Positions 280 through 34,536 are shown, counted from the first letter of the stretch. The stretch is DNA of 64,000 bases from Candidatus Oxydemutatoraceae bacterium (GCA_965218975.1 OZ244717.1:480001-544000), one strand, 5' to 3'. The notes: generated by a model from the letters alone, not told the origin. Program-made: numbers and translations.

Positions 280-377
280 GGGTGAGACGCGCCCGGAAAA
301 CCGAGCGGTTTTCAGCGGCGAACGACCCGACAAGGACGTCGGGGCTGGTGCTCATTAACAGAACCAAGTCTCGTCAT
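280..377. repeat. 98-bp structured repeat unit (1 copy), followed by a degenerate tail to about 403
   Basis: GGGTGAGACGCGCCCGGAAAACC..GGTTTTCAGCGGCGAACGACCCGACAAGGACGTCGGGGCTGG..ACAGAACCAAGTCTCGTCAT. Confidence 0.95.
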
Positions 378-476
378 GGATGACAAACACTTTGCCGAAC
401 ATTCGCCAGCAAATACAAAATGGTTTCATCAACTCAAAGATTTTACTGCTGCCGAGATTCGAATGAGCTTGGCGCA

Positions 477-600
477 GGGTGAGACGCGCCCGGGAAACCG
501 ATCGGTTTTCAGCAGCGAACGACCCGACAAGGACGTCGGGGCTGGTGATCATTGACAGAACCAAGTCTCGTTATGGACGACAGGCACTTTGCTGACAATC
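477..600. repeat. 98-bp unit (477-574) plus 26-bp tail GGACGACAGGCACTTTGCTGACAATC
   Basis: Direct alignment by eye with the other copies. Confidence 0.95.
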
Positions 601-925
601 CGCCGACGCCTTTTGCGCGGCGCTTTGGTGCGGTCATGCAATGCACTGAGTCCAATGCGGCGATAACGTCGGCGCCAGCGGTACAAAAAGTACTGCAACC
701 GACTTTGAATGCGTTCGGGAGTTACATCCCTCCCAAAATGAGGGCGGCATATTTCTGTTGAAGCTTGAGTGCTCATGAGCCTCCATTTTTGAAGCAAAAT
801 TGGCTCATCTAGAAACCTTTGATGCGGTGTTGTAGCCGATTTGTGCTGATATTGCATATCGGCCACCTTTTTATTGACGTCCAAGAATCCGGTATGTGTC
901 CGGACACGTACAGAGCAAAAACGGC

Positions 926-1240
926 TTATTTAATTACTACTTCGCTGCTGCCGGAATTATCCTGATTATCCACCCAAGACAGTTTAACAGTGTCGCCTGC
1001 CGCGGCGCCCGTGAAAGTGAAGGAGACAAAAGGGTTTTGTGAAACACCGGTTCCCCAATAAGCATCAAATACCAACTTGCCTTTGTGCTCAGCCGACACA
1101 CGCCGAATAAAATGCGCCGGGATTATATTGCCGCTGTCGTCTTTGCGCCGTCCGGTTTCCATCGGGTGGCTAATCAGCGCTTTAATGGTGGTTTCCCCAT
1201 CTTTCAACTTTGCCCGCATTCGAATATTTTTGTTTGCCAT
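926..1240 (-). CDS. soxZ: Thiosulfate oxidation carrier protein SoxZ
   Basis: HPMETGRRKD..G..IPAHFI and W.DN motifs; directly downstream of soxY. Confidence 0.95.
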   Translation of the reverse strand: MANKNIRMRAKLKDGETTIKALISHPMETGRRKDDSGNIIPAHFIRRVSAEHKGKLVFDAYWGTGVSQNPFVSFTFTGAAAGDTVKLSWVDNQDNSGSSEVVIK

Positions 1241-1260
1241 CGCTTCCGCTCAATTATTGC

Positions 1261-1704
1261 TTAACCGCAACCTCCCGCGGTAACCTGCACTTTACGGCGA
1301 GCACTGTAAAATTTACCATCCGCCTTGACTAAAGCAATGATGTCGGAAGTTTCACGGACTTTCACATTGACTGCAACTTCAGGCTTGTTATACTCGGTGA
1401 ACATAAATCGCGATGTCAAAGGGACAGGATTTTTTTCGACCAGAATGTTAATCATGTCAACTTTATCAAGGCTTGTTTTGACTCCGACACGTACCTGGCC
1501 GCCATTTTCGGCCACTCGCGGCACTTCAAGCTCCACATCAGATTCACTAATGCCGGCGCCGCCGGTAATGTCGGCAATGGTTTTATCCAGCTCGGTTATT
1601 GAAAAAATCGCCTTCGGCCAATCGGCGTAAGCTGGCAGCGAGAAAAAACTGACAGCCGCCCAACCGACAACGCGGCTTAAAAAATTTCTGCGACACGGAT
1701 TCAT
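1261..1704 (-). CDS. soxY: Thiosulfate oxidation carrier protein SoxY
   Basis: Tat signal RRNFL, P.VAENG motif, C-terminal VTAGGCG swinging arm; start taken at MNPCRR. Confidence 0.95.
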   Translation of the reverse strand: MNPCRRNFLSRVVGWAAVSFFSLPAYADWPKAIFSITELDKTIADITGGAGISESDVELEVPRVAENGGQVRVGVKTSLDKVDMINILVEKNPVPLTSRFMFTEYNKPEVAVNVKVRETSDIIALVKADGKFYSARRKVQVTAGGCG

Positions 1705-1962
1705 TGTTTTTCCAACCTCCGGCTTCCGCAATGTTTGAGTGTATCAATGAATTGTACTATGTTAGCATCATTATTTAATCATTCAAAGGTTTTGGCAAAA
1801 TGTTTTGTGAAAATAATCATAGCCGATTGTATCCGGCAATGATGCTTATTGCGTTGCTTAGCGCCGCTTGCGGCAATCGGGGGGATCTTTATTTGCCGGA
1901 TGAACAGAATCGTAAAGTTACCGAATCCGGCATATCACAGTCACAAGCGGCAGAATAGCACG

Positions 1963-3207
1963 ATGATGCTGATAGATAGGCAAGACGGGAAAGGGTTGCG
2001 ATTGGAGAGTGTCCCGTTGTATACGATTGCCGACCGTTTCGGCACTCCGACATACGTCTATTCCGGCGCAACATTCGAGCAAAACTGGCGCGCATTCGAT
2101 AGCGCATTATATGGGCGAGCGCATTCGGTTTGTTATGCGGTGAAAGCGTGTTCAAACATTGCATTACTACAGCTATTGGCAAAACTTGGCAGCGGTTTCG
2201 ACATTGTTTCCGGCGGTGAATTGGAGCGAGTGCGGCGTGTCGGCGGCGATCTCAACAAAGTGGTTTTTTCGGGAGTCGGCAAGTTGCCGCATGAAATTGA
2301 AAATGCGTTACGTTCAAATATTCGTTGTTTAAATGTGGAGTCATCCGCTGAATTAAAAGCTGTCGAGCAAACGGCGGAGCGGCTAGGAGGTGTCGCACCG
2401 GTTGCCTTGCGAATTAATCCCGATGTCGCTATCGATACGCACCGCTATATTGCGACCGGCTTCGGTGAAAGTAAGTTCGGGGTGTCGCCGGGGCAGGCTC
2501 GAGATATGTATCGCCGGATTGCCGGTAGCAACGTATTGCAAGCGGTCGGTATCGGTTGCCACATCGGTTCGCAGATCACCACAACCGAACCGTTCGCTCA
2601 AGCGGCTAAATTATTGATTGAACTTGCCGATGAATTGGTTGCGGACGGACTTCCTCTGCAACACATTGATTTTGGCGGCGGATTCGCAGCAGGCGATGGT
2701 ACATTAAGTGCGCATGAGTATATGCAAGTGTTGACGGATGCAATCGGCGACCGCCCATGGGAAGTACTGATTGAGCCGGGACGTTCGATCAGCGGCACGG
2801 CCGGGCTATTGTTGACGCAAGTGATCTATTTGAAGAAGAACGGACGGAAAAAATTTGCGGTGGTGGACGCAGCCATGAACGACTTAATTCGTCCGGCGTT
2901 GTATCAAGCAAAGCACTCATTAGTAGAAGTTCGCGAGCATATCGGACTTGCTCACGACGAGTGGGACATTGTCGGGGCGGTGTGCGAAAGCGGCGACTTT
3001 ATCGCACATGATTGCCGGTTGAGAATTAAGGAAGGTGATTTGCTTGCAGTGTTAACAGCGGGCGCATACGGATTTTCTATGGCGGGCAACTACAATTCAA
3101 GGCCGCGTGCTGCCGAAGTATTGGTTGACGGCGAACAATTTCATTTGATCCGCACCCGTGAAACAGTAACCGATTTAATGGCGAACGAATTTCTGCTTGA
3201 CGAATGA
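1963..3207 (+). CDS. lysA: Diaminopimelate decarboxylase
   Basis: YAVKA PLP lysine, HIGSQ, EPGR, CESGD, YNSRPR motifs; the ORF extends to 1849 but the likely start is about 1963. Confidence 0.95.
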   Translation: MMLIDRQDGKGLRLESVPLYTIADRFGTPTYVYSGATFEQNWRAFDSALYGRAHSVCYAVKACSNIALLQLLAKLGSGFDIVSGGELERVRRVGGDLNKVVFSGVGKLPHEIENALRSNIRCLNVESSAELKAVEQTAERLGGVAPVALRINPDVAIDTHRYIATGFGESKFGVSPGQARDMYRRIAGSNVLQAVGIGCHIGSQITTTEPFAQAAKLLIELADELVADGLPLQHIDFGGGFAAGDGTLSAHEYMQVLTDAIGDRPWEVLIEPGRSISGTAGLLLTQVIYLKKNGRKKFAVVDAAMNDLIRPALYQAKHSLVEVREHIGLAHDEWDIVGAVCESGDFIAHDCRLRIKEGDLLAVLTAGAYGFSMAGNYNSRPRAAEVLVDGEQFHLIRTRETVTDLMANEFLLDE

Positions 3208-3226
3208 ACCCGTAATTAAGGATGAT

Positions 3227-3550
3227 TTAATCGGCAGTAAAAGTCGTTTGCGAAATGTTGCCGGATGTGTCGATATCGACTCGGGTTACTTGCGGCATTC
3301 GTTTTAGAATATAAGCGGCGGCAAGCTCCGCTAGCGAGTGATTTTCTTGAAGGATAGCTGTTAGTATGCGATCGGCGGCAATCTGACAACGTTGCAGGGT
3401 ATTCGGGCACTCAACCCACCGCCGGCTCATTTGCCGACCGCGATTTAGATTGCGGTCGATATCGGAGAAGAAATCTTCCGCCTCCTCAAGCAAGGTATCG
3501 GTGACTTCAATCCGATAAAGCGACCCATCAATGGCGACTGTTAATAGCAA
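3227..3550 (-). CDS. Conserved hypothetical protein (107 aa)
   Basis: Clean ORF with protein-like composition; motif FF..D..L..G.QMSR.WVE.P....RCQIAAD resembles hypothetical proteins I recall from sulfur oxidisers (recollection, not a search). Confidence 0.7.
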   Translation of the reverse strand: MLLTVAIDGSLYRIEVTDTLLEEAEDFFSDIDRNLNRGRQMSRRWVECPNTLQRCQIAADRILTAILQENHSLAELAAAYILKRMPQVTRVDIDTSGNISQTTFTAD

Positions 3551-3643
3551 GCTTGTTTTTGACCGGCCGAAACAACTTTTATCTATGTCCGATACTGAGA
3601 CTATGGTTGAAGGGAAGCGGCTGTTTTCAGATTAAAGCGTAGA

Positions 3644-3844
3644 TTAACGTTTTGAACCGATTTCTTTGTGTGCGTCTTCGATGATTTCCATTGCGATTTT
3701 CATACAATCCTCACGATATCCGGCGAGCACAGACTCATCCTCAGGTGTGAAGTAATCTTTCATAGAAACCCCTGCCTCGTGCTCTTTCAAAATGAATTTT
3801 TTTTGCATTTCTATCAGTCTTTTAATTTTTTCCTGCTTAGTCAT
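3644..3844 (-). CDS. Small hypothetical helical protein (66 aa)
   Basis: ATG with AAGGTG RBS-like sequence upstream; charged amphipathic helices; co-oriented with 3227-3550. Confidence 0.7.
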   Translation of the reverse strand: MTKQEKIKRLIEMQKKFILKEHEAGVSMKDYFTPEDESVLAGYREDCMKIAMEIIEDAHKEIGSKR

Positions 3845-4021
3845 TTCTTCACCTTACAAGTACCTGAATTGATCCGTTGATTAAGGACGTTTAGCGCATT
3901 GTCGGTTGTAAGACTAACCGAAGTAACCGAACATTTCCAATATTCCTGATTAGATAGCGCATGATTACAGGTATGTCGTCCCGCGCGACGGATAAGATAT
4001 AATAGCGTCTTTTATTTCAGC

Positions 4022-4098
4022 GGGCGTGTAGCTCAGTTGGTTAGAGCACCGTCTTCACATGGCGGGGGTCGCTGGTTCGAGTCCGGCCATGCCCACCA
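4022..4098 (+). tRNA. tRNA-Val (anticodon CAC)
   Basis: Cloverleaf GGGCGTG..CATGCCC-A-CCA, D arm AGCTCAGTTGGTTAGAGC, anticodon arm CCGTC-TTCACAT-GGCGG, T loop GGTTCGAGTCC. Confidence 0.95.
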
Positions 4099-4216
4099 CA
4101 ACCTAAGCTTCTCGGCTTTCGAGAACTAACCCGTGGACGGCACAGAGTGCCGCCCGCTGATTTTGCGGCGTACGTCTTGTGAGAATGATAAGCCGAATTC
4201 TTTTGATACGAAACAG

Positions 4217-4470
4217 CTAATCAACCCCATCCACAAACGTTTCAACAAACGCTTTAATCCGGTCAATAATACGTTCTGTGATTATACGGCGCTCCTTAAT
4301 CTTCGGGCGTATATACATGATGTCAATCACGTCATCTCGCAACGGCGTCTTCTCCGTGAACAGATAATCATCAATCACTTCCCGCAACCTGTTAACGTCT
4401 AGCCCTTCATCCTCGCTTAAAGCCTGAATGGCCTTGTGCTTTTCTTCAGTCCAGTAGCCTTCAAAAGCGA
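4217..4470 (-). pseudogene. C-terminal remnant of a type I restriction endonuclease R subunit (HsdR)-like gene
   Basis: FEGYW..EK..A...L.E.EGLD...L..VI.DYLFTEK.PLRDDV...RPK..ER....ERI.D.I..FVETF resembles HsdR C-termini; cut off by the IS end at 4471. Confidence 0.55.
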
Positions 4471-4566
4471 TGTATAGTGCCAGATACATATGGGACTCAC
4501 GGCACGACTCGAAAAGGTGACCGATATGCAATATCAGCATATCGGCCACCGCATCAAATGTTTCTG
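4471..4566 (+). mobile_element. Isolated IS481 left-end fragment
   Basis: TGTATAGTGCCAGATACATATGGGACTCAC...ATGCAATATCAGCA nearly identical to 33853 onward and to the reverse complement of 6862 backward. Confidence 0.8.
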
Positions 4567-4574
4567 AGCTTATG

Positions 4575-4993
4575 CACATGCTATCGGCAAGATGGGATGG
4601 ATTGACAAACTCTTTGATGCTGTCAAAGGGGGCAATGGATAACCCATCCGACAACTCGATTTCCTGATCTAGACGTAATCCACGAAAAACGGAAATATGG
4701 TAACCGGTGAACCGACGTCTTTCCTCCGGTGCCAGAAATTCTTCCAGTCTTGATGCTACATCATTGAGGTCTTTACCCTTCGTGCAACTCATTAGCCCCG
4801 CAACGATATCGGTCAAACTTACGCACGCACCCACATTTTCGATGTGAACATTAAGTTCATCTGTTTTGGACGAGGACTCCAAGACGTGTTTTAGGACAGG
4901 GTGTTCGCGCAGGACCTTTTTAACCGCATTCAATGCCAAGAAAAGAGGTCCGTAGTGAGTCCTATAGTAAAGAGACTCTTTGTTGGCACGCAT
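4575..4993 (-). pseudogene. Truncated N-terminal part of an unknown accessory gene
   Basis: MRANKESLYY..GLRLDQEIELSDGLSIAPF; bounded on both sides by IS481 ends. Confidence 0.4.
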
Positions 4994-5135
4994 TATTATA
5001 TATAGAATAACGACGGCTGGAAAAAGGGTGTACGATGCCACCCTAAATGGGATTTTTGAAGGGCTTCGGGGGAAACGTTCGGCAGTAACATTCGGATCGG
5101 TGCTTTCTGTCCGTTGTCGGCATGAGGACGGTGCA

Positions 5136-5357
5136 GGGTGAGACGCGTCCGGAAAACCGATCGGTTTTCAGCGGCGAACGACCCGACAAGGATGTCGGGG
5201 CTGGAGATCATTGACAGAACCAAGTCTCGTCATGGGTGAGACGCGCCCGGAAAACCAATTGGTTTTCAGCGGTGAACGACCCGACAAGGATGTCGGGGCT
5301 GGCGCTCATTGACAGAACCAAGTCGCGTCATGGATGACAGGCACTTTGCCGACAATC
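5136..5357. repeat. Two tandem 98-bp units (5136-5233, 5234-5331) plus 26-bp tail
   Basis: Exact 98-bp periodicity of GGGTGAGACGCG. Confidence 0.95.
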
Positions 5358-5606
5358 CGGCACAATCCGCCGACAACACGCCAACAAACACAAAACGGTT
5401 TCATAACCGGTCATTGAATGCTTCCGTATCGGCGAATAGCAGGTCTTCCGCATGATCGATACAATCTTCTTGGACGGTGCGGTTGAAGCGCACGATGTGC
5501 GCGTTCATTTTTGGACACTTGGGATAGGTCAGCCACTGTTCAATCACGGATGATTTCCGGATGAGCCGGGCAAACTGTCCTTGAAACTCGCTCCTGCCGT
5601 CCGTCA

Positions 5607-5926
5607 GGGTGAGACGCGCCCGGAAAACCGATCGGTTTTCAGCGGCGAACAACTCGACAAGGACGTCGGGGCTGGCGCTCATTGACAGAACCAAGTCTCG
5701 TCATGGGTGAGACGCGCCCGGAAAACCAATTGGTTTTCAGCGGCGAACGATCCGACAAGGATGTCGGGGCTGGGGCTTGTTGACAGAACCCAGTCGCGTC
5801 ATGGGTGAGACGCGCCCGGAAAACCAATTGGTTTTCAGCGGTGAACGACCCGACAAGGATGTCGGGGCTGGGGCTTGTTGACAGAACCCAGTCGCGTCAT
5901 GGATGACAGGCACTTTGCCGAAATTC
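5607..5926. repeat. Three tandem 98-bp units (5607-5704, 5705-5802, 5803-5900) plus tail
   Basis: Exact 98-bp periodicity. Confidence 0.95.
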
Positions 5927-6236
5927 TGCCAGGCGCAGGAATGCGGCTGTGTTGCGGCTGTTACAGCGGTTGGTTGCCACTGCTATTGCCATTCGGGTAT
6001 AGATATTGATGGCCGTTAAGACGTAGCGGCGCACTCCGTGCTGATAACGCACAATCGTATCCAGGGCGATACAATGCCCCCGGATACTGTGCTTTGAAGT
6101 GTTTCGGCTTGCGTGCCCTGCAACGGCGCTTAAACGGTCGTTTTGTTTGTCCTTTGGCATTCAGCCGCTGCGGAATACAGCGCATTTTATCCGGCGCATC
6201 TGCGATCAGGCGCGCAATCGTGCGGACACTCGGGCA

Positions 6237-6556
6237 GGGTGAGACGCGCCCGGAAAACCAATTGGTTTTCAGCGGCGAACGATCCGACAAGGATGTCGGG
6301 GCTGGGGCTTGTTGACAGAACCAAGTCGCGTCATGGGTGAGACGCGCCCGGAAAACCGATCGGTTTTCAGCGGCGAACGACTCGACAAGGACGTCGGGGC
6401 TGGCTCTCATTGACAGAACCAAGTCTCGTCATGGGGGAGACGCGCCCGGAAAACCAATTGGTTTTCAGCGGCGAACGACCCGACAAGGATGTCGGGGCTG
6501 GGGCTTGTTGACAGAACCAAGTCTCGTCATGGACGACAGGCACTTTGCTGACAATC
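6237..6556. repeat. Three tandem 98-bp units (6237-6334, 6335-6432, 6433-6530) plus 26-bp tail
   Basis: Exact 98-bp periodicity. Confidence 0.95.
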
Positions 6557-7144
6557 CGCTGGCGCCTCTTACGCGGCGCTTTGCCGCGATCATGTAAGGC
6601 GCTGAGGCCAGTGTGGCGATAACGCCGACGCCAGCGGTACAAAGTACTGCGACCGATCTTGAATGCGTTCGGGAGTTACAACCCTCCCAAAATAATAGGG
6701 CATCATATTTCTGTTGAGCCGTTGTGTTCATAATAACCTCTATTTTTGAAGCAAAATTGGCTCATATAGAAACCTTTGATGCGGTGGCCGATGTACTGAT
6801 ATTGCATATCGGTTACCTTTTTGAGTCGTGCCGTGAATCCCACATGTATCTGGCACTGTACAAAGGGTCGGAAAACGTTGCTCGTCGCTTAGCGAGTTCG
6901 CCCACCCCTATTTTAATGATATCTAGCTCAGAGATGTAATCCATTTCAGTCTCTGCCAGCGAAGAAAGAGATTGAGCCAAACGTTTAACCCAATCGGATG
7001 CCGAAAAATGATGCTGTACCATAGTTAAGAACTTATCCTATTACATCTGATTGCGTCAATGTCTTAGATGTTAAGGATATGTAGTATAGCCAAGTCGCTA
7101 TCCAACAACACAGCGTGTAATATGCGACGAATCCGTACAAATTC

Positions 7145-7170
7145 CTTGACTTTAGTTAAAGTGCCCATAT
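7145..7170 (+). promoter_or_regulatory. Putative sigma-32 (RpoH) heat-shock promoter of groESL
   Basis: CTTGAC-N13-CCCATAT resembles the CTTGAA-N13/14-CCCCAT consensus, about 80 bp upstream of groES. Confidence 0.65.
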
Positions 7171-7250
7171 TATTGTATGCACGATGGAAGCGCCAAAGGT
7201 GCTTTATCTCGTTAAATCACTGATTCGTAAACAAACGTTAGGAGTATTAT

Positions 7251-7538
7251 ATGAAACTTCGTCCCTTATATGACCGTGTAGTCGTTAGGCGTATGGAAGA
7301 GGAGCGGACAAGTCCCGGCGGTATCGTGATACCGGACAACGCCACCGAGAAACCCATGCGTGGTGAAATTATCTCACTAGGAACCGGCAAACTGATGGAT
7401 AATGGGGAAGTCCGCCCGCCCGCTATTAAAGCAGGCGATATAGTTCTGTTTGGGAAATATTCCGGAACAGAAGTCAAAATTGATGATCAAGAACTGGTTG
7501 TAATGCGTGAAGACGACATTATGGCAGTGATTGAGTAA
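7251..7538 (+). CDS. groES: Co-chaperonin GroES
   Basis: [27 protein letters not shown]. Confidence 0.98.
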
Positions 7539-7573
7539 CTAAGAAGTAACTTTAAATTAAATAGGGAAATTAA

Positions 7574-9229
<1,656 letters not shown>

Positions 9230-9343
9230 GCAGCCTAGATGCTACATCTACCGCTGAGTTGAGTGTTTCGACCGGAACCGACGACAGTCGTTGCCGATGG
9301 TGTCCGACTGGCCGCAAGGTTCAGTATGAGCAGGATAGGGATA

Positions 9344-9385
9344 CGGGGTATTTAGAGGCAATTCGATATTGCTTCTAATACCCCG
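9344..9385. terminator. Long inverted repeat between convergent groEL and fxsA; possible terminator or stabilising hairpin
   Basis: CGGGGTATTTAGAGGCAAT-TCGAT-ATTGCTTCTAATACCCCG; no clear U-tract on the + strand. Confidence 0.4.
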
Positions 9386-9685
9386 GTGAAAAAGAAATCG
9401 GAGATGCGGTAGAGGTTCTCTAACAAAGTGTCGGATAGGTCTGCTAAATACACTTTTTCTCGTCCGATACGTCTTACATACATAAAATCCGCATTCGTAT
9501 CAGCAGTTTGTAAAAACGTAGCCCGGCACACACTGCCTTTGGTTCATTGCAAAGTGCGCACGGCGAATGAGCGAATATCAACTCGTTCGGAGCAAGCATT
9601 GCGGTGCAAAGCGCGGGCTTTTTGCGGAGACGGTTTAGATTTTTTCGTTTAAAAATGAATCCGTCCGCGTTATTGATAATAACTT

Positions 9686-10114
9686 TCAATCATTGTCGTC
9701 ATGTCGACGAAAAGTGCCCTCGATGTCGCGTCCTTTGCGACCGCTTTCTCGGGTAAACTCACGATCGAGATCGAGACCGTTTTTTACCATAAGGCGAATC
9801 AACCACATTCGACTGATCCGTAATAAACATAGAAACCCGATCAAGTCGGTTATAAAGCCGGGCACCAATAGCAATCCTCCGCCGATCAGCAGTAACAATC
9901 TTTCCAATAGCTCAAAAGCCAACAGTTCGCCGCGTGCTTGCACGGCTTGAAAGTGCATAAATGTATCAAGCCCTTGCGCCTTTAACATGCCGATGCCGAT
10001 TATGGCGGTTAAGAGAACCAAAAAAATCGTTGCCCAAACGCCTATCATTGAGCCGACCTCAATTAAGACAACGATTTCTATCAGCGGTGCAAGGATTAGC
10101 AGGAAAATTAACAT
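9686..10114 (-). CDS. fxsA: FxsA family membrane protein
   Basis: PLIEI..LI.VG..IG, LLLVPGFITD..G motifs; conserved position next to groES and cutA. Confidence 0.9.
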   Translation of the reverse strand: MLIFLLILAPLIEIVVLIEVGSMIGVWATIFLVLLTAIIGIGMLKAQGLDTFMHFQAVQARGELLAFELLERLLLLIGGGLLLVPGFITDLIGFLCLLRISRMWLIRLMVKNGLDLDREFTRESGRKGRDIEGTFRRHDDND

Positions 10115-10192
10115 AGCATGAAAGCGCCTAATAACGAATAGTGATAGCGTTATATAATAATGCAGTTAGATCAACTTTTCAGGAAAAGACTT

Positions 10193-26787: not shown

Positions 26788-26855
26788 TGCAAGTTATTGA
26801 GCGGGCGGTCCCGTGCGCTTTGCCCAGATTGCATGGTTAAAAAGACACAACCGCT

Positions 26856-27527
26856 TCATGCGTTTTTTTCTTCGTCTGCTGCCTGAGAAATCGTGTCCAA
26901 ATTTAAATCCGCCATGTTTTCCATCGCTTCGGCAGTCTGAGCATTTATTTCGTCACTATCCGTTTCAGGCTGTTGGGCTTCTTCTTCGCTTTGCAGGCTT
27001 TCAAGGCTGACAATTCTTGGATTATAAGCTGCGTCTTTAGAGGTTGTTTTATCCTCGGAAATGTCTGTCTCATTCGTATTATTACCGAACATTCTATTCG
27101 GCACATCTTCATTATCATCATCCGATGATGCGCTTTCCGCACCTTCGGTGCCTTCAGGCAACATCACCTCATTCGCTGCACCTTCTGCTATGCCTTCGTT
27201 GAAGTTTGCTCTCAAATTGCCGACTTCCATACCGGGGACGGCGACCGCACCGGGCCGCATGTTGATGTCATTAGCCAGCAGTCCGGCTAAACTTTTTCCA
27301 GACCCGGCGAGAGTCGGTTCAATCAACGGTTCATTCAACACGCTCTCGTCAACTTTGCCTTCGGCAATTTCGCGTAGGGAGACAACGGTTGTTTTGTGCT
27401 TATCCGACGACTCGATACGCGCCTCGGAGCCGGTGTGTAACAGTCGTGCACGGTGGCTAGCAATCCGCACCAGTTGAAAATGGTTTTTAATTTTCTGAAG
27501 ACAATCTTCTACAGTAATACGCGCCAT
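26856..27527 (-). CDS. rpoZ: RNA polymerase omega subunit with long acidic C-terminal extension
   Basis: MARITVEDCL..F.LV..AS.RAR..K.TVV.LREIAEG, then about 150 low-complexity acidic residues. Confidence 0.9.
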   Translation of the reverse strand: MARITVEDCLQKIKNHFQLVRIASHRARLLHTGSEARIESSDKHKTTVVSLREIAEGKVDESVLNEPLIEPTLAGSGKSLAGLLANDINMRPGAVAVPGMEVGNLRANFNEGIAEGAANEVMLPEGTEGAESASSDDDNEDVPNRMFGNNTNETDISEDKTTSKDAAYNPRIVSLESLQSEEEAQQPETDSDEINAQTAEAMENMADLNLDTISQAADEEKNA

Positions 27528-27930
27528 CTGGTTGTGACTCAAGTTAAGTTAAACGGGGCACTATTATATAAAGCTCTAGCAGTTTCGTCCACTAATTGTA
27601 TGACGATGACTCCTGCCTGCCTTCGTTATTCGCCTCTGTCGGCATGACCGACGGAATAGCCGCATTGCATGAGAGTGTTGTAAACAAGCGATCACATACA
27701 AGGAACCGGCATTTTGAAATGACCCGCGTCTGCCGGATTCATCCCGCTACGCCGACAATCACTATCGGCACACTGGCTTTAAAGAATCCTTGACACGGAT
27801 GAGTGCTACAACCGCATAATCCGTACAAGCCTATACACAAACTAACGCGCTGAAAATCAAGCCATCATTATGCTCTATTGCGTATTACCGCTGCAATGAA
27901 CCGGTAAAATCGGATCGGATGGCTTAAGCT

Positions 27931-28674
27931 TTAGTACATCAACTCAACCCGCCGATTCATTTTATGTGCTCGTTCACTGTTACCTTGATGCAGCGGACGT
28001 TCTTCACCATAGCTAACCGTTACGATCTGAGATGGGGAAACTCCCATTTCTTCAAGGATGTCCGCCACCATCCGAGCGCGTTGCAGGCCCAGCCGTTTGT
28101 TATATTCTCGCGATGCCACGCTGTCGGTATGCCCTTCAATAGTTACAATCAAGTCGGGATTTTTCTGTAAATAAGCGGCATGCGCCTCCAACAGATGCAT
28201 CCCCGCGGAGCCAGTCCGAGCTTTCTTATAATCAAACTGCACAATATTATTGTTCGGTTGCCCGCCACTTGCTTCTTGGAGACGACCGGCGGCTTGCTTA
28301 CCTTTCATTGCTGTCTCTGTAGGACGACGTGTCGGCGGCATCGCTTCTTCATCCGCCATCTGACCATCGTAGTTAAGGCGGCGAGGGGACTCCTCTGACG
28401 TTTCTTTTTTGGCACTCACCACTTCACGATACAATTCATTGCCATCCTCATCAACGTACACATAAACGATCTCTTCCACACCTTCTCCTGAAAACTCGTC
28501 CTCTTCCAATCCATTTTCCACTTCTATTTCGTCATCAAATACAATTTCTTTGACTTCTTCCTCATCGTCAAAAAACCAATCCCATGATTTTGAACTACAG
28601 CCAGTCAGCGCTAAAACGATAATTAAAGCGAGTAATAAAGGTTTGTATAAAGTCATGCTCGTTTCCCCTTTCAT
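27931..28674 (-). CDS. OmpA/Pal-like peptidoglycan-binding lipoprotein
   Basis: Lipobox LALTGC; C-terminal IEGHTD...YN..LG.QRA, SYGEERP, NRRVEL; acidic linker. Confidence 0.88.
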   Translation of the reverse strand: MKGETSMTLYKPLLLALIIVLALTGCSSKSWDWFFDDEEEVKEIVFDDEIEVENGLEEDEFSGEGVEEIVYVYVDEDGNELYREVVSAKKETSEESPRRLNYDGQMADEEAMPPTRRPTETAMKGKQAAGRLQEASGGQPNNNIVQFDYKKARTGSAGMHLLEAHAAYLQKNPDLIVTIEGHTDSVASREYNKRLGLQRARMVADILEEMGVSPSQIVTVSYGEERPLHQGNSERAHKMNRRVELMY

Positions 28675-28856
28675 TTTTTCCTTGGCAGCACCGCATCGGT
28701 CCTATTCTTAGGATCATATTTATTTGCGATGAACTTGCGTAACCGCCATTTCACATCTAGCCCGATTGTTTGCAACTATTCATTCAGGGCGCATCGCTTT
28801 GCCCCGGAATTATTTTTTATGTTTCATGCGCATTCGGCGCTTCCACGCAAATCCGA

Positions 28857-29354
28857 TTAATTCCCGCATTTACCTTCGCCGCACTTACCTTCTTTATCTT
28901 TTTTCATTTCACTTCCACCGCATTTACCTTCTTTATCTTTTTTCATTTCACTTCCACCGCATTTACCTTCTTTATCTTTTTTCATTTCACTTCCACCGCA
29001 TTTACCTTCGCCGCACTTACCTTCTTTATCTTTTTTCATTTCACTTCCACCGCATTTACCTTCGCCGCACTTACCTTCTTTATCTTTTTTCATTTCACTT
29101 CCACCGCATTTACCTTCGCCGCACTTGCCTTCTTTATCTTTTTTCATTTCACTTCCACCGCATTTACCTTCGCCGCATTTACCTTCCATGCTTTTCTTCA
29201 TTGAATGGTTGTCGGCCAATTGCATATAACCGGAAGAGAGCTCTTGCATTTCAAAAGGGGATTGTTCGGCATTCATATTCGCGGATAATGTTCCCGCAAT
29301 CACAGTTGAAACAATGGCGACAGACGCCTTGAGTTTAAATTTTTTGTGCTCCAT
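28857..29354 (-). CDS. Secreted EGKCG-repeat low-complexity protein (HvfA/bufferin-type RiPP metallophore precursor)
   Basis: Signal peptide, SPF...ELSSGY.QLA motif, 12 EGKCG units. Confidence 0.85.
   Translation of the reverse strand: MEHKKFKLKASVAIVSTVIAGTLSANMNAEQSPFEMQELSSGYMQLADNHSMKKSMEGKCGEGKCGGSEMKKDKEGKCGEGKCGGSEMKKDKEGKCGEGKCGGSEMKKDKEGKCGEGKCGGSEMKKDKEGKCGGSEMKKDKEGKCGGSEMKKDKEGKCGEGKCGN
28863..29186. repeat. Intragenic tandem repeat with 54-bp and 39-bp units (EGKCG[EGKCG]GSEMKKDK)
   Basis: Near-identical CCTTCTTTATCTTTTTTCATTTCACTTCCACCGCATTTA units. Confidence 0.95.
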
Positions 29355-29744
29355 TTTTTCCTCGCTTAAAGAAGTTACGTCAACTTTCGCGCAGTATAAT
29401 GCACTTTAATGTTTATTTCCATAATTTTATAGTATGGACCGGAACAATTTTGGTAGTTTCACACTCGCAATTTCGCTTCGTGGCGGTAGTATACGGCTTA
29501 ATACGCTACGGACAATGCGAATGGTGTGATGGGCGCGCGCTGCCCTGGACACAATCAGCGACAGCGCGCTGTTTTTCGGCAATTGTTCCCCGTTCTCAAA
29601 ACTCGAATTAAAAACTCAATGTTCGCACGCGCCGTACCGAACGGCATATATTATAAAGATGCCTTTTTTATCCGCATCTTTGCAACTTCAGCGATTATGC
29701 TCTCCTATTGAAACTCCACATCCCGAATGTCTTAACGATCGCAA

Positions 29745-31016
29745 TCAACGAGTCGCTGCTTTGTGTATTTGTCGCCGCAAATCCGCAACTTTTCCAACTA
29801 CCACTCGTGGCGGCACTTCGGTAAAATCCCGGCGCGGTTCGAGCGGTATATTTTTCGAGTGTGTCATCATGTGAGACTTCCAATCTTCACTTGCAAACTC
29901 GCGTCTCGGATTAAAGTTGACCCAGCGCCGATAATGGCCGGCATTGTTAATCACCACAGGATAAAAAGTTTGGACGTAGTGGCATGTGCGAAAATGCGCC
30001 GGAAACAATTCCAGCAGACCGGCATTTTTCGGAAGCATCATGCTAAGACCAAGCCCCGCACCATGCATTCCTATCAATATGTCAGTCTCATGAACCAAAC
30101 GCAATTGGTCGCTCATTGGCAAGTCTTCCAAAAAATGCTCTTTAACTTCGGCATCAAGAAATTTCTTGCGTAAGGCCGCGACAATTTCATCCGCATTGCT
30201 AATTTTTCTGGATACAAAGTTTGTATACGTAGTACGCACTTTGTAATCACGGCGCAACACCAAAGTGATCTTGCCGACCCTGCTACTGCGGTCCCTTAAT
30301 TTAATCCCGAAAGCAAGCGCTAGGCATTGACGTGTTTGCTCTATCACATCGCCTTGTTGCCATATGAACCGATCATACTGCACAAGCCTCAACTTGCGAA
30401 AGAAACATTTACCGCGCATACCCTCAATATGCTTTACATCAAACACCTTAGTGATCAAAGTGCCCACTTCCGTATGCATCTTGCTTCCTTGGAAAAGCAG
30501 CAGTCCGGTATGAATAGGGATATTGAAACTTGTAAAACAATGCACTAAATAGGTGAGTTCGCGCAGCACAATAGCGGGGTTTGCCCGTGCGGCTTGAGGC
30601 GGACACAGAAACACATTTTTTTCAGAAGTGGATTCGGCGGCGGCAGGCATCGGCGCCATTGTTTGCCGCCATTTGTTAAAATCGAAAACCTGCGTGAGTT
30701 TTGTGGCCGAAGGACTAATTCTGTCGCCTATACGCATAAAAGATTCTGCAAAAACTGTCTCTTTGCCGACCCTTTTACACAAATCGAAATCCACCAGCAC
30801 ATTTTCGCACTGTAATAGATGCCCTTCCTTTTTAACCGCACCGTTAAATCTTTGACAAGGAGAAACGTCACAACCAACTATCCTTTTATTTTTGCGACCA
30901 TACAAGCTTTGTTTAACGATCGGACGCACCACTCGATTATCAAATCCGGTCATGAACACTGCGATCCAATAAAACAAAATATGCATCGATAGCAATTTGA
31001 CGTATTGCCAATACAA
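29745..31016 (-). CDS. Glycosyltransferase family 61 (DUF563/EOGT-like)
   Basis: R.ISN.DE, QL.LVHETDILIGMHGAGL, LLELFP motifs. Confidence 0.8.
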   Translation of the reverse strand: MYWQYVKLLSMHILFYWIAVFMTGFDNRVVRPIVKQSLYGRKNKRIVGCDVSPCQRFNGAVKKEGHLLQCENVLVDFDLCKRVGKETVFAESFMRIGDRISPSATKLTQVFDFNKWRQTMAPMPAAAESTSEKNVFLCPPQAARANPAIVLRELTYLVHCFTSFNIPIHTGLLLFQGSKMHTEVGTLITKVFDVKHIEGMRGKCFFRKLRLVQYDRFIWQQGDVIEQTRQCLALAFGIKLRDRSSRVGKITLVLRRDYKVRTTYTNFVSRKISNADEIVAALRKKFLDAEVKEHFLEDLPMSDQLRLVHETDILIGMHGAGLGLSMMLPKNAGLLELFPAHFRTCHYVQTFYPVVINNAGHYRRWVNFNPRREFASEDWKSHMMTHSKNIPLEPRRDFTEVPPRVVVGKVADLRRQIHKAATR

Positions 31017-31350
31017 TTTATTTACTTCCTTAGTAACGCTTAGTGTAACAAAAGCGTCGGTAGAAAAATCTTGCTTCCAATACAGATTAATCGTATGGCT
31101 GCGAATTATAATCCGCCGATTGGTTAAATCTCCGATAAGCCCGTCTGATTGACAAAAGTTCCATTATCAATGAATTCTTCTTGCAGGAGTTCCGACATTT
31201 GAAAGTATTTGAGTCACTTACCTGTATATTAGTTTATATTATATTGTGTAATCTCGGTTTAGCAATCGAATAGAATTCGAATTTTTATTTAATATTTTCA
31301 GTTAAATCCTCTTAAATTCTTGCATCTTTCAGAAAACAAGCCTAAAATCT

Positions 31351-31812
31351 ATGAACATGTCGGAAATACTTTTATTAAACGGACCTAATCTTAATTTACT
31401 CGGTCAACGTGAACCTGAAGTCTATGGGTGCGACACGCTGTCAGACGTTATCCGCCGGTCGCGAGATACGGCAAGGCTGGCAGGATTGACGCTGACCGAC
31501 TTTCAAACCAATAGTGAAAGCGAATTGATTCAGCGAATTCAGGCAGTGCTGAGCGATGATACTAATTTCATTATTTTCAACCCTGGTGCATTGACGCATA
31601 CAAGTATTGCTCTGCGTGATGCGCTGCTGGCTGTTGACACTCCGTTTGTCGAAGTGCATCTATCCAATGTGTTTGCGCGGGAGGGATTTCGGCAACGTTC
31701 TTATCTGTCCGATATCGCCGTAGGTGTCGTATCCGGTTTGGGCGTGAACGGTTATCTGGCGGCAATCTCTTTTGCGGCACAATACTTGCGGCAAAAAAGC
31801 CAAGGGACCTAA
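31351..31812 (+). CDS. aroQ: Type II 3-dehydroquinate dehydratase
   Basis: LNGPNLNLLGQREPEVYG, EVHLSN. Confidence 0.97.
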   Translation: MNMSEILLLNGPNLNLLGQREPEVYGCDTLSDVIRRSRDTARLAGLTLTDFQTNSESELIQRIQAVLSDDTNFIIFNPGALTHTSIALRDALLAVDTPFVEVHLSNVFAREGFRQRSYLSDIAVGVVSGLGVNGYLAAISFAAQYLRQKSQGT

Positions 31813-32292
31813 ATGGATATTCGCAAAGTTAAAAAATTGATAGAAATGCTTCAAGACGCACCCGATATCGGTGAAATAGAAGTGCGTGAAGGCGAAGAAT
31901 CGGTGCGTTTAACGCGCACCCCTAAAACACCGAGCGTGCCAATGCCGCAACAAGTTCAAATTCCCACGCCGGCTGCGACAAAACCGGCGCCTACGGCGGG
32001 ACCGGTCACAACCGCCTACGCTGAGGTGCCTGATGAAGCAATAGAGGAGGGAAACGGTGAAGTGATTAAATCGCCGATGGTCGGCACTTTCTATGCCGCT
32101 CCCGCACCTGATGCCGAACCATTCGTTCGTGAAGGAACAACCGTTAAACAAGGCGACACCTTGTGTATTATTGAAGCGATGAAAACGATGAATCAAATTC
32201 CGGCGCCGGTCAGTGGCGCTGTAACAAAGGTTTTTGTCGAGGACAGAGACCCGGTTGAGTTTGATCAACCGTTGATGACCATTCAACCTTGA
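31813..32292 (+). CDS. accB: Biotin carboxyl carrier protein
   Basis: [23 protein letters not shown]. Confidence 0.97.
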
Positions 32293-32308
32293 GCCGTCAT
32301 GCACACCG

Positions 32309-33658
32309 ATGCTTGACAAAATTGTCATTGCAAACCGGGGAGAAATTGCTCTGCGGATTTTGCGCGCGTGCAAAGAACTTGGCGTTAAAACAGTTGCGGT
32401 TTACTCGCAAGCGGATGTTTCGCTAAAACATGTCAAACTCGCCGACGAGTCGGTCTGCATCGGCCCGGCGAATTCGAGCCAAAGCTACCTTAACATTCCG
32501 GCAATTATCAGTGCGGCGGAATTAACCGACGCAATGGCAGTTCATCCGGGCTATGGCTTTTTATCGGAAAACGCGCACTTTGCGGAACAAGTTGAATCAA
32601 GCGGATTTATTTTTATCGGTCCGCACGCAAAAACGATTGCTTTGATGGGCGATAAGATTTCCGCACGCAAAGCGATGCAAAACGCGAGTATTCCATGTGT
32701 GCCGGGCTCTGACGGACCGATCGGTTCCGATGTTTTGGAAAATATTGAAATAGCGCGTCGCATCGGCTATCCGGTTATCATCAAAGCTGCCGCCGGAGGA
32801 GGCGGGCGCGGTATGCGAGTGGTGCATAGCGAAGGGGCTTTGGCAAATGCAATCATGTTGACACGGTCGGAAGCGCAATCGACATTCGGTAGCGATACGG
32901 TATATATGGAAAAATTTCTCGGCCAGCCACGGCATATTGAATTTCAGGTACTAGCAGACGGGCATGGCAACGCAATCCACCTCGGCGAGCGCGATTGTTC
33001 TATGCAACGTCGCCATCAGAAAGTAGTCGAAGAAGCGCCAGCGCCAAGTATTGCTTCAAAGCAAAGAGAACAGATGGGCGCATTGGTCGTACAAGCATGC
33101 TTGGATATCGGGTATCGCGGCGCCGGCACTTTTGAATTTCTCTATGAGGGCGGTAAGTTTTATTTTATTGAGATGAATACCCGTATACAAGTGGAACATC
33201 CTGTGACCGAAATGATAACCGGCATTGACATTGTAAAGTTGCAACTGCAGATTGCAAGCGGGGAAAAACTTCCGCTGGCACAGTCCGACGTTGAGTTTCG
33301 CGGGCATGCGATCGAGTGCCGAATTAACGCCGAAGATCCGAAAACATTTATGCCGTCGCCCGGAAAGATTGATTGGTTTCATGCACCGGGCGGCCCAGGT
33401 ATCCGCATGGATACGCATTTATATAGCGGCTATACTGTGCCGCCATATTATGATTCTTTGATCGGCAAACTCATTGCCTATGGCGAGAACCGAGCGAGCG
33501 CCATTCAACGCTTGCGTTGCGCTTTGGATGAAATGTTTGTGACCGGTATTATCACGAACATCCACTTACATCAGGATATCCTGAACGATGCCGCATTCTG
33601 CGACGGCGGTTTGGATATTCACTATCTTGAGAAAAAACTTGCGCAACATCACGCGTAA
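32309..33658 (+). CDS. accC: Biotin carboxylase
   Basis: [28 protein letters not shown]. Confidence 0.98.
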
Positions 33659-33852
33659 AATCAATATGCCATTCTATCTGCGTAAGAGCGACGGGGAGTA
33701 TCTGCCTCGTTCTCATTTCCGGCGAATCGTTATTCTCATTGAGGCGGAGACTTTTGCACGCAGGAAAGGAAACTAAAGGCACTGAAAAATCACACAGCGG
33801 TCGGAGTTCGATAATTCATCCGCCGCTTGACGAAACAGCGAAGTGTATCTGT

Positions 33853-34536
33853 TGTATAGTGCCAGATACATATGGGACTCACAGCATGACTCGAAAAGGT
33901 GACCGATATGCAATATCAGCACATCGGCCACCGCATCAAAGGTTTCTATATGAGCCAATTTTGCTTCAAAAATAGAGGCTATTATGAACACAACGGCTCA
34001 ACAGAAATATGATGCCCTATTATTTTGGGAGGGTTGTAACTCCCGAACGCATTCAAGATCGGTCGCAGTACTTTGTACCGCTGGCGCCGACGTTATCGCC
34101 GCACTGGCCTCAGCGCCTTGCATGATCGCGGCAAAGCGCCGCGTAAGAGGCGCCAGCGGATCTGGCCGCAACCGATTCAGTGTGAAACCGTTTTGCGCTT
34201 GTTGCCAGATTGTCGGCAAAGTGCCTGTCGTCCATGACGAGACTTGGTTCTGTCAATGAACCCGAGCCTCGACGTCCTTGTCGGGTCGTTCGCCGCTGAA
34301 AACCAATTGGTTTTCCGGGCGCGTCTCACCCATGACGAGACTTGGTTCTGTCAATGAACCCCAGCCCCGACGTCCTTGTTGGGCCGTTCGCCGCTGAAAA
34401 CCGATCGGTTTTCCGGGCGCGTCTCACCCTGCACCGTCCTCATGCCGGCAACGGACAGAAAGTACCGATCCGAATGTTACTGCCGAACGCTTCCCTCGAA
34501 ACCCTTCAAAAATCCCATTTAGGATGACATCATACA
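33853..34536 (+). mobile_element. Defective IS481-family element (copy C), internally deleted, carrying two 98-bp units
   Basis: Starts TGTATAGTGCCAGATACA, ends AAATCCCATTTAGGATGACATCATACA; same transposase fragments as copies A and B. Confidence 0.85.
34208..34429. repeat. 26-bp tail plus two tandem 98-bp units (34234-34331, 34332-34429), reverse complement relative to the other blocks
   Basis: ATGACGAGACTTGGTTCTGTCAATG...GAAAACC(AATT/GATC)GGTTTTCCGGGCGCGTCTCACCC. Confidence 0.95.

Follow-up and report, generated by a model that had tools for sequence, protein, structure and literature searches.

The elements closest to the one described here are hairpin modules linked to Csr/Rsm regulation. 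In the portions of Duss et al. (PMC4005645) available to us, the high-affinity CsrA/RsmE site is an ANGGAX hexaloop set directly on a stem, and the Csr/Rsm decoy small RNAs (sRNAs; CsrB, CsrC, RsmX/Y/Z) carry GGA in hairpin loops of this kind; tandem gene copies are known for rsmX, as far as the accessible text of PMC7911923 goes. The TwoAYGGAY motif (RF01731, clan CL00106) has been described from Pseudomonadota in a preprint (10.64898/2026.09.22.753630), the available passages of which present it as extended, multi-copy, arranged in doublets and flanked by repeats, propose its loops as Csr/Rsm sites, and call its expansion 'mobile-element-like' while leaving the matter unresolved. Here we analyse a stretch of 64,000 nucleotides (nt) from Candidatus Oxydemutatoraceae bacterium (GCA_965218975.1 OZ244717.1:480001-544000; hereafter the window), in which 12 copies of a 98-bp unit stand in 6 blocks, all of them within three relics of IS481-family insertion sequences (IS). 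The genome, G000, is a single contig of 2.081 Mb.

We propose, with a probability of roughly 0.55, that an uncatalogued Csr/Rsm-type, RNA-like element entered IS481 copies and spread by patch copying, recombination and IS amplification, as a passenger and not as a weapon of the host. The closest known kind is that of the TwoAYGGAY and Csr/Rsm-type hairpin elements, beside which this family is a second, uncatalogued one. What is novel is the strict 5' end of the family, its niche at tRNA genes and stop codons, and its exceptional expansion in IS481 relics. Its function as a CsrA decoy and its mode of movement are what the sequences suggest.

Repeat blocks of the window

An initial annotation had counted 12 units in 6 blocks, and a 23-mer scan and Tandem Repeats Finder (TRF) agree with it. 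With at most 3 mismatches, a 23-mer of the unit start matches 12 times in the window (0 expected from 100 shuffles): on the + strand at 280, 477, 5136, 5234, 5607, 5705, 5803, 6237, 6335 and 6433, and on the - strand at 34309-34331 and 34407-34429; the same scan finds no further copy in the rest of the window. TRF reports a period of 98 with 2.0-3.1 copies and 90-94% matches at 5136-5337, 5602-5906, 6237-6532 and 34232-34429. The 26-nt tail that follows the units matches five times (at most 3 mismatches; 575, 5332, 5901, 6531 and, on the - strand, 34208), and in the sixth block, at 280, it is present in a more diverged form. In each of the six blocks the units run antisense to the transposase frame, and the three upstream and five downstream junction types listed in the annotation are there as it described them. 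We use IS-1 as the label for the insertion sequence represented by copies A, B and C, and B1 to B4 for the sites at which blocks sit within it.

190..917, - strand: IS481-family relic, copy A; segments M and C deleted; right inverted repeat at 190-212; left end near 898-917 diverged, read by eye
280..377, + strand: block 1, one 98-bp unit within copy A, directly abutting ...ccgttgcc from the IS right-end segment; belongs to junction class CC, which has 11 blocks in the genome
378..476, + strand: diverged tail of block 1 and antisense IS-1 segment S4 (codons LRQAYPNLGSSKIFELMKPFC on the - strand)
477..574, + strand: block 2, a single unit at site B1 of IS copy A; junction class ...ggcgCA (28 blocks)
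575..600, + strand: tail of block 2; the second ANGGAX hairpin straddles the unit/tail boundary
5029..6862, - strand: IS481-family relic, copy B; both inverted repeats (TGTAC...); three blocks break the transposase frame
5136..5331, + strand: two units at site B4, between FNDRL.. and ..HRPH transposase codons
5332..5397, + strand: tail, 11-nt mini-repeats and ccaacaaacacaaaacggtttcat, the last a flank brought from site B2
5607..5900, + strand: three units at site B3, adjoining the LTDGGSEF codons of the DDE core
5901..5926, + strand: tail of the B3 block
6237..6530, + strand: three units, downstream junction of site B2 (...CTCACCC|TGCCCGAG on the - strand)
6531..6556, + strand: tail of the 6237 block, joined to N-terminal helix-turn-helix (HTH) codons (..KRRQR) via a GAT microhomology deletion
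33853..34536, + strand: IS481-family relic, copy C, ~680 bp; reduced to N-terminal codons, one block and the right-end segment
34208..34233, - strand: tail of the copy C block
34234..34429, - strand: two units in copy C; upstream flank of B1 type, downstream junction of B4 type

In four public runs the short-read contigs contain the repeats, and the unique flanks are without differences (runs X1 and X3); no contig spans a block. As a separate observation, contigs of runs X1 and X5 skip 265 nt at window 5136-5402 and have 22 other letters between, which is the native (empty) form of B4; in those samples it presumably stems from other IS-1 copies.

Structure and CsrA-type loops

Read on the GGGTGAG strand, the family element is ~100-150 nt long and consists of the unit and the tail, in the order GGGTGAGCCGG, P2, CGGCGAACG, P3, a variable stretch and P5. 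The 5' end GGGTGAGCCGG is almost invariant and the linker CGGCGAACG invariant. P2 is a long hairpin whose sequence is free to change while its pairing is kept, P3 is a hairpin with an A-N-G-G-A-X hexaloop, and P5, at the unit/tail boundary, is a second short hairpin with the same kind of loop on a 3-bp stem. Among 50 distinct sequences, 98.3% of cells are paired in P2 and 96.9% in P3, and every pair varies on both sides (7/7 in P2, 6/6 in P3). The covariation score of 0.584 compares with 0.167 +/- 0.012 for shuffled data, of which 0/500 reach it, and with at most 0.100 for slid partners. The stems of P2 and P3 vary by paired substitutions while the ANGGAX loops and the single-stranded CGGCGAACG stay fixed, the pattern left by selection on a folded single strand.

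The ANGGAX loop of P3 is present in 31 of the 32 representatives read by eye, and stem and loop together are kept in 268 of the 302 full units of G000. P5 has an ANGGAX-type loop with at least three of four flanking pairs in 22/30 representatives; among the 29 with GGA at that place, 25 have C:G as the closing pair. The two GGA hairpins, P3 and P5, are ~35 nt apart, and two ANGGAX sites at about this distance suit one CsrA dimer. G000 has a csrA gene at 1864162-1864317 (PF02599, 90.4 bits; 64-aa open frame). Because an ANGGAX loop placed on a stem is a CsrA/RsmE site, we read the element as an RNA module that would be made in the GGGTGAG orientation and could hold one CsrA dimer.

The tail, which the initial annotation had set apart as a module of its own, is instead the conserved 3' part of the element and includes the second ANGGAX hairpin. 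It is conserved together with the unit in other genomes, and no tail occurs without a unit; of 52 tail-like matches that no canonical unit start follows (ATGACGAGAC, at least 7/10 bases), most are due to chance, and those left over are tail variants with a unit still after them. We also considered the tail as native flank of site B3 (GKVPVV|LTDGGSEF) and rejected this, as two residues fewer stand at this place in 9/9 relatives and in the native copies.

No model of Rfam 15 matches the element in cmscan searches of the window at the gathering threshold, of 5000-6900 at E <=10, and of 10 loci of relatives at E <=1. Likenesses to J4/2 of hepatitis delta virus (HDV; GGCGAAC) and to the ends and domain V of group II introns (GUGAG / GAGCCGG) were dropped, the order of helices being a misfit.

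The resemblance to TwoAYGGAY thus lies in the pair of hairpins with AYGGAY or ANGGAX loops, proposed there as Csr/Rsm sites, and in a copy number that varies by genome (up to 202 in the available text of the preprint, ~320 units here). The differences are that the Rfam model of TwoAYGGAY is silent on copies of the element at the E-values just given (E <=10 for the window, E <=1 for the 10 loci of relatives), that the GGA hairpins of the element stand ~35 nt apart without a common basal stem, and that the motif, going by the Rfam model and the accessible part of its description, is without the GGGTGAGCCGG start, P2 and the CGGCGAACG linker. The available preprint passages make no mention of placement at tRNA D-loops or at the stops of open reading frames (ORFs), or of nesting in IS. 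The two can occur in one neighbourhood: in genome G291 a genuine Rfam TwoAYGGAY match (locus L118, 320-442, - strand; 52.7 bits, cut-off 43), different in sequence, and a member of the new family are 1.1 kb apart.

With the Csr/Rsm decoy sRNAs the element has in common the GGA-bearing ANGGAX loops (described in the accessible portions of PMC4005645), the repetition of modules, which leads to multivalency, and a csrA gene in the same genome. Unlike them it matches no Rfam Csr/Rsm model, has no promoter or terminator of its own that was identified, and occurs as hundreds of dispersed copies in tRNA leaders, in 3'-UTR-like pieces (UTR, untranslated region), or antisense in dead transposase genes.

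Distribution in other genomes

Simple searches did not reveal the family. The unit was found by BLAST in 0/40 relatives, an exact-pattern search of genome contigs and metagenome contigs gave 0 matches, and plasmids and phages gave none; seven loci from a loose two-hairpin pattern were rejected as chance (alignment scores 19-31). Covariance models did reveal relatives, the search covering 424 genomes: a model R1, built from 13 units, and a second model R2 were used. R1 has full-length matches in 2 of the 52 other genomes of the order, both from the sister genus: G008 carries 2.8 tandem modules of period 149, and G004 one copy and the remnant of a second. Aligned with these, the start and the linker CGGCGAACG are kept, P2 is longer and different, P3 has compensatory changes, and the tail is homologous. 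R2 matched 28/150 genomes sampled as one per family of the class (27/149 without G192, which is unpublished and was not relied on), with up to 19 copies per genome. In a phylum-wide sample, drawn differently, 4/150 genomes matched, all four in the same class. The element family is widespread in Gammaproteobacteria, in about a fifth of the sampled families, and the period of its arrays differs by genome (98, 101, 142-149, 152).

In the literature that we searched (IS481 tandem repeats, symbionts, one-ended transposition, microhomology, partial tRNA arrays, attP, Rsm sRNA) the family was not found, although preprint supplements may hold overlapping variants; for GTGAGCCGG, GUGAGCCGG, CGGCGAACG and CCGGCGAAC the matches were to unrelated primers only.

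Two further sets of loci were recorded. Viral contigs gave 48 loci by a loose pattern, none near a tRNA gene, and R2 matches 13 of the 48 at E <=0.01; these 13 have the 5' half (GTGAGCCGG, P2, CCGGCGAACG) at ORF stop codons and a poor P3, and we make no claim about phages. G164 has convergent inverted doublets of ~285 nt (loci L057 and L058; C1 ~1666.6-1675.6 kb and 2612-2617 kb) whose outer ends ACAGGATTAAGCA are conserved while their flanks differ, a REPIN- or MITE-like form (MITE, miniature inverted-repeat transposable element; REPIN, a doublet of repetitive extragenic palindromes, REPs).

Genomic context in relatives

The 47 matches in relatives include 19 behind a fragment of a neighbouring tRNA gene and 6 at the end of an ORF. 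Sixteen of the tRNA-linked copies are of a 5' type, the fragment ending at tRNA position 16-17 or 27, and 3 of a 3' type; the tRNAs used are Lys, Thr, Met, Phe, Arg, Ser and Pro. Of these 19 copies, 16 point the same way as the downstream tRNA, and in the 6 ORF-end cases element and ORF share their orientation, the TGA of GGGTGAG being the stop of ORFs of 65-425 codons, rpmJ among them. A further copy, in G279, begins at the stop of a xerD-like gene.

The arrays show how the tRNA fragments are carried. The G008 array immediately precedes tRNA-Lys, and its modules each close with tRNA positions 1-19, after which comes GGTGAG. In G077 seven 145-nt modules precede tRNA-Met, each with tRNA positions 1-27 and the outermost with 1-16, and after the gene come modules of opposite orientation, each with the last 16 nt of the gene. 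In G004 and at two tRNA-Pro genes the element stands head-on to the tRNA 3' end, behind a copy of that end. A fragment starting exactly at +1, the signature of an RNA end, was looked for and rejected: in loci L048, L054 and L041 the duplicated stretch includes ~6-9 leader bases, so that it is a duplication at the DNA level and no copy of the mature tRNA.

In this respect the loci resemble tRNA-borne genomic islands of the Islander kind (the accessible part of PMC4383910), since the copies in relatives have an intact tRNA gene on one side and a displaced copy of its 5' or 3' end on the other. They differ in that the 'island' measures ~125 nt, is non-coding, has no linked integrase and uses many tRNAs, and in that the displaced 5' fragment ends in the D-loop. 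The likeness holds for relatives only (19/47 copies; 0/193 blocks of G000 are at a tRNA).

Beside the G008 array (locus L031, 1706-1785) three 23-nt repeats stand just 3' of its tRNA-Lys, followed by an ORF with a SEC-C motif; they may mark the edge of an island. In G279 (locus L117, 995-1600, - strand; C10:34493-35091) six tandem 101-nt repeats, with two ANGGAX hairpins each, start from the TGA stop of the xerD-like ORF, and by its layout this array looks like a 3'-UTR Csr/Rsm sponge.

The carrier insertion sequences

The broken frames of IS-1 match rve-type transposases (2/8 rve matches above the cut-off), and proteins of 330-390 aa that have HTH and rve domains share 44-52% identity with an IS-1 fragment. 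The terminal inverted repeats begin TGTAC..., so that the carrier fits a DDE rve transposase with an N-terminal HTH and TGT... ends, the hallmarks of the family, which we take to be IS481. No intact IS481-type frame exists in the genome, the longest rve frame being 246 aa vs 330-390 aa in relatives; all IS481-type copies in this genome are now dead. The unit itself is not a product of the IS: local alignment to native IS-1 on both strands scores 16-21 vs shuffle means of 17.8-18.3, a third reference, which was mis-oriented and contained a unit, being disregarded.

Census and orientation in G000

A blastn search of the genome with one unit returns 319 hits of at least 40 nt, which form 193 blocks and make up ~1.5% of the DNA. 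These blocks have consistent, site-specific junctions and a graded divergence of 84-100%. Within 300 bp, 141 of the 193 have an IS481-family coding remnant to which they are antisense and 3 one to which they are sense, and 49 have no protein remnant that near. At the DNA level, 166/193 have a 40-nt flank that matches IS-1 reference copies; the remaining blocks are mostly in IS-2, IS-3 and IS-4 (other IS481-type elements) or behind another repeat module, and a few copies lie outside any IS (e.g., intergenic 393302-393465). None abuts a tRNA gene (0/193); the nearest is 154 nt off, and 4/193 are within 300 nt. A regular-expression scan for diverged old copies near G000 tRNA genes gave 6 loose matches, none convincing. 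The initial annotation had placed the element only inside IS481 genes and in one orientation, which holds in the window and nearly so across the genome, the exceptions being three sense blocks in IS-3 and the few copies outside IS.

Those three (326250-326543, 1216603-1216700, 1751429-1751526), in the same orientation as the transposase of IS-3, a third IS481-type element, are the only sense cases. IS-2, the second such element (codons RYVFTFIDPRSRVA and WLVFYNTQRPHHSLGLQSPIQ), has units at two or three sites of its own, antisense too (C1: 589504-589699, 1204942-1205360, 1220303-1220400, 1543050-1543252 and 149159-153848), and near 149-153 kb the modules have a 152-nt period, equal to the unit plus a 60-nt tail. 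At C1 ~1507400-1507440 a dif-like 28-mer (..agttcgtataatatatattatgttaaat..) adjoins an IS-1 fragment and a truncated unit (block 1507550-1507613).

The units of G000 fall into two haplotypes, alpha and beta, separated by 10 sites, between which recombination has produced 86 combinations. Arrays have a polarity: alpha stands at the fixed end and beta nearer the tail. In both haplotypes the palindrome of the 18-bp P2 core is perfect (at positions 24/27, 146 have GC, 79 AT and 10 a mixture). The copies in this genome are young, and local data are uninformative on function. The start of the tail, GGATGACA, resembles the start of the unit, GGGTGAGA, 98 nt upstream, and these two similar 8-15-mers offer an ordinary route to a 98-nt tandem duplication.

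Joints and native sites

In unit orientation (GGGTGAG first), one end of every array is fixed and the other variable. The classes of fixed-end junction comprise 54, 28, 26, 15, 11, 10, 9 blocks and so on; nearly all upstream joints read ...CA|GGGTGAG, and GCA ends at least 9 different sites. Downstream, every array passes into the tail and then into differing sequences. The native sequence of each site was taken from transposase relatives and from IS-1 copies without the given block; such empty copies exist for all sites (B4, 4; B3, 5; B2, 1; B1, 4). Compared with them, filled copies have lost native bases: 22 nt at B4, 14-37 at B3, 19 at B2 and ~9 at B1. At B4 the native form is ggttatgg-gagtatttagcctggtataagc-tgcaccg (FNDRLWEYLAWYKLHRPH), and filled copies swap the 22 nt for aaaccgttttgtgtttgttgg, tail and units; the native B2 sequence ELMKPFCHRHQLLCPSV is kept in one copy, and native B3 reads ccggtaaaatatatcc|tgacgg. 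Microhomology at the joints of these patches is 2-13 nt long. At left joints it takes the form of ATG, ATGAAA, GG.AAA or 12 nt of gaaaccgttttg, and right joints have (C)TG(C) in common; there is no target-site duplication.

The blocks at B1, at B4, in IS-2 and in IS-3 bear an IS-1 flank that is native only upstream of B2 (the ELMKPFC codons, gaaaccgttttg). This makes them secondary copies of an earlier block and not fresh entries. Copy C has a left side of B1 type and a right side of B4 type, which marks it as a recombinant between blocks, and some of the junctions listed in the initial annotation are deletions between short direct repeats, e.g. CTG(G)CCGCAACC, the empty form of which is at 1501105. 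The several independent entry points that the annotation had deduced from its junction types are therefore not upheld: the shared B2 flank marks secondary copies, and the rest of the junctions arose by microhomology deletion or by recombination of units between blocks. B3 and B4 may each be filled or empty; all four pairings exist and do not group on the tree of the 205-nt stretch that separates them, which is star-like. This suggests that the IS was amplified in a burst, its copies recombining or undergoing conversion.

The joints thus have one precise end, a carried donor flank, microhomology, loss of target and no target duplication, and the blocks have recombined. The joints would have arisen between IS copies through template switching or synthesis-dependent repair, and the IS would then have been amplified. 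A breakpoint at the 5' end is recurrent, at the GCA| sites of G000 as at tRNA D-loops and ORF stops in other genomes; a defined 5' end suggests a specific nick, a processed RNA or single-stranded DNA end, or an enzyme.

Comparison with mobile and repeated elements

The view that the element is not a MITE, REP or attC site stands, the defining features of each being absent. Like REP/REPIN sequences and MITEs it is short, structured, non-coding, multi-copy and clustered, and it has inverted doublets in G164. Unlike a MITE, it has unit ends that do not resemble the IS-1 inverted repeats, and target bases are lost and not duplicated; unlike REPs and REPINs, it has no gene for a Y1 transposase (RAYT, REP-associated) in G000, does not flank Y1 genes elsewhere, and has one precise end only. 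Palindromes derived from IS200/IS605 differ as well, in that G000 has neither Y1_Tnp nor the TnpB zinc ribbon and that the flank, GCA here, is different in other genomes. An attC site of an integron is an imperfect palindrome bounded by RYYYAAC ... GTTRRRY with the crossover in GTT; the unit boundary here reads ...GTCAT|GGGTGAG, with no GTTRRRY core at either end.

One-ended or rolling-circle elements (IS91, ISCR and the ISEcp1 type) have a constant end with a short flank, a variable end that carries donor flank, and head-to-tail multimers. The element has a constant end, a variable end carrying adjacent DNA, and head-to-tail arrays. It departs from the IS91 type in its flank, which is GCA and not the CTTG/GTTC target of IS91, and in inserts that replace target bases and are joined by microhomology. 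Microhomology-based duplication and template switching, as presented in the accessible parts of PMC13167724 and 10.64898/2026.02.28.708716, agree with the placement of GGGTGAGA and GGATGACA 98 nt apart and with the 2-13 nt at both joints. Unlike what such processes predict, the breakpoint at the first base of the element recurs far above the chance expectation of microhomology.

Origin and spread of the element

We hypothesize that the element entered an IS481-family IS a few times, antisense to the transposase. Patch copying would start at the 5' end of the element, run through units and tail and variably into the donor flank, and the patch would then be pasted elsewhere in an IS481-type copy with 2-13 nt of microhomology and loss of target (9-22 nt; 14-37 at B3). 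The 98-nt core would have been duplicated in tandem between GGGTGAGA and GGATGACA, unit-unit recombination between blocks would have produced deletions and duplications of IS segments, and co-amplification and gene conversion would have acted among ~70 or more IS copies. The element would in this way be a passenger that broke its carrier. Tandem arrays, such as the six repeats of G279 and the seven of G077, could act as multivalent Csr/Rsm decoys.

Several points weigh against this proposal. The alignment used for covariation was fitted to the model structure and so favours that structure, and the closing helix is weak, being 72% paired. Within G000, the 245 distinct units show almost no compensatory change, and their two solid hairpins are without a strand-specific excess of G-U pairs; the copies there may be decaying neutrally. 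Among the 12 public runs none of RNA contains the locus, and CsrA binding is predicted from the motif only. In relatives, 22 of the 47 copies are in neither a tRNA nor an ORF-end context (these include the G164 doublets and a few tRNA cases missed by the criterion). That B2 was filled before B1 and B4 appears probable from shared flanks and parsimony. Finally, plain template switching leaves the 5'-end breakpoint in nearly every independent joint unaccounted for.

This recurring first-base breakpoint keeps alive the rival of a true non-autonomous transposable element, which we regard as unlikely. Such an element would have an enzymatic end at G1 of GGGTGAG and be moved in trans by a nuclease of the HUH/rolling-circle type, a relaxase-like protein, or a reverse transcriptase acting on a transcript with a fixed 5' end, the mover having been lost from the genome or belonging to an unknown family; the other end would arise by read-through, and IS481 copies, tRNA D-loops and ORF ends would be preferred or tolerated targets. 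It would account for the fixed and the variable end in G000, for the same precise 5' end in ~30 other genomes in quite different contexts, for the GCA| flank at its nine or more sites together with small target deletions, microhomology and the absence of target duplications, for head-to-tail arrays, as rolling-circle copying predicts, and for the G164 doublets of ~285 nt with conserved, REPIN/MITE-like ends. However, no candidate enzyme was found. In G000 there are 0 matches to reverse transcriptase (RVT_1, PF00078; the control was found in 3/14 genomes) and to Y1_Tnp (PF01797; control in 6/14), and none to Prim-Pol, the TnpB zinc ribbon or IS110 DEDD, nor to Relaxase, TrwC and Rep_trans, with positive controls for these three; Y2_Tnp (PF04986) has no match either, the control genomes being equally silent. 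Y1 transposases occur in 6/10 element-bearing vs 2/6 element-free genomes, and the 1.5 kb around each of six Y1 genes from other genomes contains no unit. ORFs between arrays at 149-153 kb and 2066-2068 kb of G000, read by eye, are toxin-antitoxin-like, HNH, ABC and Sel1-like, with no transposase among them. In addition, the flank before G1 varies by genome (GCA, GTTGG, or the codons before a stop), and the donor flank and replaced target bases fit repair or template switching better than clean transposition.

A satellite at the level of DNA, without an RNA function, would grow by slippage, microhomology duplication and illegitimate recombination, its GGA loops owing to a DNA-binding protein or to descent. 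The neutral look of variation within G000 agrees with it, as do array registers that vary by genome, which microhomology duplication predicts, and the perfect 18-bp palindrome of P2 in both haplotypes fits a dimeric DNA-binding protein too. We consider this explanation improbable, since P2 and P3 vary by paired stem substitutions across families while the ANGGAX loops and CGGCGAACG are fixed, and since orientation is non-random both at tRNA genes (16/19) and in the 6 ORF-end cases. A device of the host or of the IS, disabling or regulating the IS through antisense RNA genes, CsrA-titrating sites or sites required by the transposase, might be suspected from the antisense placement of all window blocks and of 141 of the 144 blocks with a coding remnant nearby, from the position of B3 beside the codon for the second catalytic Asp (LTDGGSEF), and from the fact that every IS481-type frame in the genome is broken. 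Yet other genomes have the element outside any IS, beside tRNA genes and at ORF ends, three blocks in another IS481-type element are oppositely oriented, and one or two entries followed by recombination explain the sites; block-free native IS-1 copies exist for all four of them, the unit is unlike the IS ends, and we know of no system that places blocks in transposase genes in this way. Such a device is therefore very improbable. The initial annotation had left the choice between a hyper-parasite and host targeting of the IS: a unit that is foreign to the IS and lives outside IS elsewhere bears out the former in part, and the tRNA and ORF-end copies and the microhomology patches leave the host mechanism without support. 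That the blocks are mis-joined repeats of the assembly we find hardly credible. Short-read contigs do break inside the repeats, none spanning a block, but the genome is a single 2.081-Mb contig whose 193 blocks have site-specific junctions and a divergence of 84-100%, and the same junction types, including the empty B4, are found in contigs from runs of other studies (X5, X6).

A more far-reaching reading, which we hold to be doubtful, combines regulation with mobility: a self-propagating CsrA-decoy RNA, that is, a mobile regulatory module whose end at G1 of GGGUGAG would be set by processing, self-cleavage or a nick, and whose single-stranded intermediate would enter tRNA D-loops, ORF stops and IS481 genes. 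If this were true, it would explain how sponge-like or TwoAYGGAY-like elements reach tens to hundreds of copies, and G000 would be the clearest fossil record of that mechanism, with more than 15 independent joints and their matching empty sites. The available passages of 10.64898/2026.09.22.753630 leave open both the expansion of AYGGAY hairpins and the link between mobility and Csr/Rsm, and G000 provides sequence-level material on these questions: among its ~320 young copies, filled and empty sites, joints, microhomologies, lost bases and donor flanks can be read directly. If the RNA is made and bound by CsrA, a global regulator could be shifted by the hundreds of copies that lie in dead transposons, and a burst of the IS would then affect regulation as a side effect. 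For annotators, many loci of the 'broken transposase plus tandem repeat' kind and partial tRNA duplications are explained by the family, and an Rfam model is easily added.

Other features of the window

One remnant of IS-1 lies apart from the three relics:
4471..4494, + strand: solo IS-1 left inverted repeat, inside a 274-aa ORF (4217-5041, - strand)

That ORF also includes ~85 nt of the IS-1 left end, and sequence adjacent to the left end recurs beside other IS-1 copies; the ORF may be chimeric, or may itself be part of a repeat. Elsewhere in the window, nested tandem repeats of 15, 39, 54 and 93 bp occupy 28864-29188 (TRF scores up to 439), apparently within a repetitive coding region.

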